A DNA stretch of 64,000 nucleotides. Source: Escherichia coli (lineage in GTDB: Bacteria > Pseudomonadota > Gammaproteobacteria > Enterobacterales > Enterobacteriaceae). The notes beneath the pieces were generated by a model. It ran no database searches, had not been told where the DNA came from, and saw only the letters and a program-made list of their open reading frames with translations. The stretch is from assembly GCF_003334765.1 (NCBI RefSeq), contig NZ_QOWT01000003.1, one strand, 5' to 3'. The position numbers and the translations under genes were made by a program. Positions 6,535 to 6,820 of the stretch are shown here, one piece after another; the stretch's first letter is position 1; each line of letters begins with the position of its first letter.

Positions 6535-6690
6535 CTCTGCATTTCCTCCTTACCGATAAATATCTGCCGTCATTAATCTGTTGAATAATGATGGCTGGCA
6601 AGTCGACATACATTTTCTGGGCTCCCTCATTTTTCCATTCTCATGACATATTCGTGATCGACACTGCACTTTTTTTAATCCTTAACTTAA

Positions 6691-6775
6691 AAATGAAACA
6701 TTGTTTTATTTTTAATTGAAAACCCTAGCCCATGGGCATATCATCCCTTTATAGAGAAAACGAAACAGTGTTTCA
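6691..6775. promoter_or_regulatory. two KdgR-box-like palindromes upstream of kduI
   Basis: AAATGAAACATTGTTTTATTT at 6691-6711 and GAAACAGTGTTTC at 6763-6775; kduI/kduD belong to the KdgR regulon (established). Confidence 0.45.
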
Positions 6776-6820
6776 CTATCGTTTTCTATTTTCACGCTTT
6801 ACTGATTATCGGAGGTTGAT

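Follow-up and report, generated by a model that had tools for sequence, protein, structure and literature searches.

The closest described counterpart of the system studied here is the KdgR regulon of Dickeya (Erwinia chrysanthemi) and of other gamma-proteobacteria, which has in common with E. coli both a 21-bp palindromic operator and the target genes kduI and kduD. In Dickeya, binding of 2-keto-3-deoxygluconate (KDG) frees KdgR from the DNA (as shown for the pel promoters), with cAMP-CRP serving as activator of these same promoters (PMC8688573). This logic, in which KdgR repression is lifted by KDG and complemented by cAMP-CRP activation, does not appear to differ in anything essential in E. 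coli, although E. coli, unlike Dickeya with its pectin/KDG regulon, has no pectinase genes. The 21-bp KdgR consensus, AAATGAAACAnTGTTTCATTT, goes back to Rodionov (2000/2004), as quoted in PMC5559549, and the motif of group 2 of the IclR family is TGRAACA-N1-2-TGTTYCA (PMC8222616).

The control of E. coli kduI-kduD by KdgR is itself already known, from comparative genomics (2000/2004) and from knockout transcripts (2019), and kduID is already listed among the predicted and known KdgR targets (PMC6958661). In Northern blots, deletion of kdgR, and likewise deletion of plaR (yiaJ), leads to more kduD mRNA (Shimada et al. 2019, PMC6958661), the derepression in these mutants being confounded because the mRNA of each regulator rises when the other is deleted. 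Additionally, kduI and kduD are over-expressed, and KdgR repression was predicted, in a strain that lacks kdgR together with other genes (39 genes deleted in all, so that it is no clean kdgR knockout; Sastry et al. 2019, PMC6892915). With galacturonate or glucuronate, a kduI reporter whose primers map to positions 6497-6853 of the DNA analysed here shows 7- to 54-fold induction (Rothe et al. 2013, PMC3578941). The KdgR- and PlaR-dependent repression of kduD mRNA and the induction by hexuronates, like the binding of PlaR and CRP to promoter fragments discussed below, are thus results of the published literature. In its searchable part we found neither direct binding nor a footprint of E. coli KdgR on the kduI boxes, nor any published study that separates the roles of the two boxes.

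An earlier note on this DNA had pointed to two palindromes upstream of kduI and had read them as sites of KdgR repression of kduI-kduD. The palindromes are located in the 286-bp yqeF-kduI spacer (6535-6820) of the E. coli chromosome, with kduI and then kduD downstream; all coordinates refer to the window, by which we mean the whole 64-kb stretch of DNA that was analysed. The E. coli arrangement is that of a kduI-kduD operon downstream of yqeF, with the promoter situated between two boxes whose distance is conserved at 67-68 nt. The genes and transcript signals of this region are the following:

5350-6534, plus strand: yqeF, acetyl-CoA acetyltransferase (profile search).
6811-6815, plus strand: GGAGG, Shine-Dalgarno sequence of kduI, 97% conserved, 5 nt before the GTG.
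6821-7657, plus strand: kduI, 5-dehydro-4-deoxy-D-glucuronate isomerase, 278 aa, GTG start (NCBIfam NF002091, RefSeq).
7687-8448, plus strand: kduD, 2-dehydro-3-deoxy-D-gluconate 5-dehydrogenase, 253 aa (NCBIfam TIGR01832 / NF006528).
8469-8496, plus strand: terminator-like hairpin with a T-run, 3' of kduD (consensus scan only).

KduI matches the NCBIfam equivalog NF002091 over its full length (453.7 bits against a cut-off of 250, E 2e-136) and KduD matches TIGR01832 with 457 bits (cut-off 339), the start of kduD following the stop of kduI after 29 nt. The downstream hairpin, whose 9-bp stem in the consensus scan includes 6 GC pairs and precedes TTTTTAT, is the probable end of the kduI-kduD transcript. 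A 501-base query around the boxes is matched at 95-100% identity by 5,419 of 5,426 complete E. coli genomes, and on identical DNA RefSeq annotates it as the end of yqeF plus the start of kduI, in agreement with the profile searches. A few E. coli genomes match the spacer only in part. In H12 (NZ_CM127463.1) the 501-nt query is matched only from about 6639 onward and the match falls at two places of the record, as if the DNA between yqeF and the CRP-like box described below had undergone an insertion or rearrangement; in H26 (NZ_CP145513.1) the match covers only the first 93% of a 141-nt query. The kduI-yqeF spacer is also flagged with H-NS in the RpoD SELEX table (PMC3946193), and this AT-rich region may be an additional H-NS target.

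Within the spacer, the elements of the promoter region are arranged as follows (no strand is given for the boxes):

6653-6668: CRP-like box CGTGATCGACACTGCA, CGTGA-N6-CTGCA (compare TGTGA-N6-TCACA), from conservation and consensus match.
6691-6711: operator O1, AAATGAAACATTGTTTTATTT, KdgR-type (IclR group 2) palindrome, 1 mismatch to the consensus.
6716-6744, plus strand: sigma-70 promoter of kduI, with -35 TTGAAA (6716-6721), a 17-nt spacer and -10 TATCAT (6739-6744), 10/12 to the consensus.
6758-6778: operator O2, AAACGAAACAGTGTTTCACTA, with the perfect core GAAACAGTGTTTC at 6762-6774, 3 mismatches to the consensus.

The first palindrome is present at exactly the coordinates claimed for it (6691-6711), and the second exists as well but lies one base further left than had been reported, its core occupying 6762-6774 and not 6763-6775. 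The proposed likeness to the KdgR consensus AAATGAAACAnTGTTTCATTT is borne out by the mismatch counts above, and the proposed placement 50-130 bp upstream of kduI by the box centres, which are found 120 and 53 nt before the GTG at 6821. On both strands of the 64-kb window, O1 and O2 are the sole matches to the consensus with three or fewer mismatches, while the mean number of chance matches at this threshold was 0.00 in 100 dinucleotide-preserving shuffles. A scan of the window that allowed up to five mismatches gave no site besides these two, so that control of kduD by KdgR would most simply be exerted through the kduI promoter. From centre to centre the boxes are separated by 67 nt, and as direct repeats they share 88% identity. 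The palindrome of O1 extends further, to 19-nt arms (84% complementary) that span 6682-6720 and reach into the -35 hexamer. The 13-nt core of O1 also occurs elsewhere in the window, as GAAACATTGTTTT at 28120-28132; it is inside an open reading frame (27789-28196) and has more than five mismatches in the 21-nt register, and we discarded it as most likely due to chance.

The conservation of this architecture was followed in species-representative genomes, a KduI scan of which gave 80 loci with 90-99% protein identity, nearly all of them Enterobacteriaceae by title (Escherichia, Citrobacter, Enterobacter, Kluyvera, Kosakonia, Lelliottia and Trabulsiella) and three labelled otherwise. A box with the half-sites of O1 stands 103-127 nt before the start codon in 79/80 kduI loci, and a second box follows 65-69 nt downstream of it, the distance being 67 nt in 53 and 68 nt in 22 of these 79. 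In the alignment of the 80 loci, the O1 half-sites TGAAAC and GTTTTA have a mean conservation of 99.6% around a central triplet of 60%, the O2 half-sites reach 95% and 90% around a triplet of 44%, and the rest of the spacer averages 41-57%. The -35 TTGAAA, the 17-nt spacer and a -10 of the form TAnnAT are each found in 80/80 loci, and the distance from O1 to the -35 hexamer is the same in every one of them. Within E. coli, O1 is invariant even in the most divergent alleles sampled (95% identity over 141 nt), and the sole change seen in O2 affects its central triplet (AGT to AGC). Such invariant half-sites around a free 3-nt centre are the signature of a dimeric DNA-binding protein and not of coding or RNA constraint. 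Conservation in relatives had been set beforehand as a check on the boxes and, since both their position and their half-sites are kept in 79/80 Enterobacteriaceae kduI loci, the boxes are not refuted on this ground.

Two observations made on the same set of sequences deserve mention. In most genera the orthologues of O2 are a symmetric CG variant, AAACGGAAC-N3-GTTTCGTT, as opposed to the TG...CA of O1 and of the KdgR consensus, and this variant may differ in affinity or be preferred by another IclR paralogue. Separately, the record JACZXR010000090.1, titled as a Deltaproteobacteria metagenome-assembled genome, contains a kduI gene whose product has 99% identity with that of E. coli; from about 30 nt upstream of kduI, past the ribosome-binding region, the sequence of the record is unrelated and KdgR boxes are absent. 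This record is probably a contamination or a chimeric or rearranged contig.

Sites other than those of kduI were taken from the E. coli K-12 loci of kdgT, kdgK and eda, 35 kb in all. In this DNA, matches to the KdgR consensus with up to five mismatches occur only upstream of the classical KdgR targets kdgT (AAATAAAACAGCGTTTCAATT, 3 mismatches) and kdgK (TAATGGAACACTGTTTTAATA, 5 mismatches). Upstream of eda (positions 4700-5600 of the K-12 locus, L083), no KdgR-like box was found at up to seven mismatches, and eda is therefore unusable as a third independent training site. In a cross-validation with position weight matrices, those built from the orthologues of either kduI box recover the other box as well as the kdgT and kdgK operators:

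O1-orthologue matrix, window: O2 ranked second with 17.5 bits, next best 7.8 bits.
O1-orthologue matrix, K-12: kdgT site top with 30.2 bits, kdgK site top with 9.2 bits.
O2-orthologue matrix, window: O1 ranked second with 22.4 bits, next best 15.2 bits.
O2-orthologue matrix, K-12: kdgT site top with 21.6 bits, kdgK site top with 18.5 bits.

The 15.2-bit site, third-best for the O2-derived matrix, is TTGCGAAACGCTGTTGCGATT at 14497-14517, which is intergenic and upstream of a minus-strand open reading frame of 343 aa (13315-14346). By their sequences, O1, O2 and the kdgT and kdgK sites form one motif family, in which the kduI boxes are at least as consensus-like as the others and O1 is the nearest of the four to the KdgR consensus. 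The K-12 kdgT and kdgK loci thus have their motif in common with kduI, and differ from it in that one box was detected at each of them, against two at kduI. The match to the consensus, the conservation, the motif in common with kdgT and kdgK and the transcripts of kdgR-deleted strains (PMC6958661, PMC6892915) all agree with the repression of kduI-kduD by KdgR that the earlier note had put forward. We conclude that O1 and O2 are very likely the KdgR operators of the kduI-kduD promoter, and that they are probably shared with the paralogue PlaR/YiaJ.

The two boxes bracket the core promoter, O1 being upstream of the -35 hexamer and O2 downstream of the -10. The same combination, TTGAAA-17-TATCAT, is listed for kduI in the genomic SELEX table of the RpoD holoenzyme (PMC3946193). 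From the -10 hexamer only, we infer a transcription start near 6751, and all box positions given relative to the start depend on this value. On this numbering, O1 would extend from about -60 to -40, with its centre (6701) at about -50 and its end 4 nt before the -35 hexamer, and O2 would extend from about +8 to +28 within the transcribed leader, with its centre (6768) at about +18.

Upstream of O1 lies the CRP-like box at 6653-6668, an element that was absent from the earlier note. Among the 80 species, its CGTGATC (6653-6659) is 97% and its CA (6667-6668) 99% conserved, with the neighbouring spacer at 41-57%; the match to the CRP consensus is 6/10 in E. coli and 7-8/10 in 55/80 species. The centre of the box, at 6660.5, would be at about -90.5 from the inferred start. 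In class I CRP promoters the 22-bp site is found at about -61.5, -71.5, -82.5 or -92.5, and kduI resembles them in having a TGTGA-like half-site some 90-92 nt before the inferred start and in its reported binding and activation by Crp; it differs from them in its weak right half-site, which leaves E. coli at the 6/10 overall already given. Crp is reported to bind the kduI promoter in EMSA and to activate it (PMC8085971), and kduI expression is down in a crp deletion (PMC8846999). The box at 6653-6668 is, by its sequence and position, the probable CRP site of kduI.

Based on this map, the following mechanism can be proposed. When KDG is absent, KdgR dimers would be bound to O1 and O2, boxes that PlaR could occupy as well. 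On O1, between the CRP box and the -35 hexamer, a repressor dimer would hinder the alpha subunits of RNA polymerase as well as CRP-dependent activation; on O2, at about +18, it would prevent the open complex from forming, or stop promoter escape or early elongation. Because the core promoter hexamers lie outside O1, a repressive role is harder to see for O1 than for O2. Catabolism of hexuronates or pectin fragments would then yield KDG, which would bind KdgR and cause it to leave the DNA, after which cAMP-CRP would set the level of kduI-kduD transcription, through to the hairpin at 8469-8496. The role of KDG as the inducer in E. coli is proposed by analogy with Dickeya, and both the occupant of each box and the mode of repression (steric versus looping) are points that we infer.

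A further question is whether the fixed two-operator geometry is functional in itself, either through looping by a KdgR tetramer or through a division of labour between KdgR and PlaR on the two boxes. We think this unlikely, if not negligibly so. The spacing of 67-68 nt corresponds to about 6.4 helical turns, which is out of phase for simple looping, and it is unlike the tandem spacing of IclR tetramers, typically 18-22 nt (PMC8222616), so that cooperative looping is conceivable but finds no support here. Beside the division of labour we note the difference between the boxes themselves, O2 being mostly of the CG form across genera and O1 of the form TGAAAC-N3-GTTTTA.

The only serious rival to the assignment of O1 and O2 to KdgR is that the boxes are primarily PlaR operators and that the effect of KdgR on kduID is indirect, by cross-regulation with plaR. 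PlaR does have a claim on this promoter: kduI is among its targets in genomic SELEX, PlaR shifted a kduI probe in EMSA (PMC6958661), and the primers published for this probe map to 6429-6840, a fragment that includes both boxes. Furthermore, the PlaR-box, ATnTGAAACnnnGTTCAnTT, was described as resembling the KdgR box (Shimada et al. 2019, PMC6958661) and nearly equals it, and by inspection O1 and O2 carry TGAAAC/CGAAAC-N3-GTTT(T/C)A, which matches it. The kduD mRNA is also up in the plaR mutant, and the plaR mRNA is altered in the kdgR mutant (PMC6958661). Since PlaR binds the fragment with both boxes and represses kduD, KdgR is not their sole occupant. The half-sites of the PlaR-box are near-identical to those of the kduI boxes, but PlaR acts primarily on the yiaK operon and is reported to have other effectors. 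A comparison of O2 with the best operator of PlaR itself, TGAAATCAAGTTTCG in the plaR-yiaK spacer, which is close to neither O1 nor O2, speaks neither for nor against O2 being of the PlaR type. As a description of the main occupant, nevertheless, the PlaR reading is distinctly improbable. This PlaR operator is farther from the KdgR consensus than either kduI box: no site in that spacer is within six mismatches of this consensus, the best box having about seven by inspection, against one and three for the kduI boxes. The classical KdgR targets kdgT and kdgK share the motif, the PlaR EMSA used micromolar protein, and the rise of plaR mRNA in the kdgR mutant would strengthen repression by PlaR, yet kduD is derepressed there.

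A very small chance is left to the reading of O2 as an RNA hairpin of the kduI leader, acting for example on mRNA stability or translation instead of as a DNA site for a protein. O2 is inside the inferred transcribed leader, and the E. coli leader does fold with an extended stem around it (AGAAAACGA...TCGTTTTCT, -17.2 kcal/mol); however, the z-score of the fold is only -1.34, a fold as good or better is reached by 24/200 shuffles, a search of Rfam gave nothing at E up to 1, and other genera do not conserve the outer stem. Moreover, invariant half-sites of 5-6 nt on either side of a free 3-nt centre point to a dimeric DNA-binding protein. O1 has the same motif upstream of the promoter, and so cannot act as RNA. 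With a non-significant fold and no Rfam match, the RNA element was rejected. A small open reading frame was rejected too as the cause of the conservation. A preprint predicts a 23-aa microprotein beside kduI in the uropathogenic strain UPEC 536, docking onto KduI (PMC11188072), but the spacers flanking kduID (6535-6820 and 8449-8633) contain no open reading frame of 22-24 codons, and a 32-aa frame at 6732 begins with an ATG that the aligned species do not keep. Finally, that the boxes are chance AT-rich palindromes or a promoter UP element without a specific regulator is barely credible and is effectively refuted by the shuffles, the cross-validation and the column conservation: the spacer is AT-rich and O1 occupies the usual place of an UP element, but zero matches are expected in 64 kb, about 80 species keep the half-sites and vary the centre, kdgT and kdgK have the motif in common, and the literature reports regulator-dependent expression (PMC6958661, PMC6892915).

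With O1 and O2 read as KdgR operators, the result matters little beyond annotation, namely the placing of the operators of KdgR (and PlaR) and of a CRP box at E. coli kduI-kduD. Should the labour prove to be divided between KdgR and PlaR, the kduID promoter would gain a two-input logic in addition to CRP. For E. coli, neither a direct footprint of KdgR nor the individual contributions of O1 and O2 appear to have been published, and setting this out is a further addition of the present work. The sequences of the boxes, their statistical rarity, their geometry relative to the promoter and their conservation are direct observations, and they provide the modest additions made here, i.e. a base-level map of the promoter (CRP box, O1, -35/-10, O2) and an architecture that is conserved in about 80 enterobacterial species.
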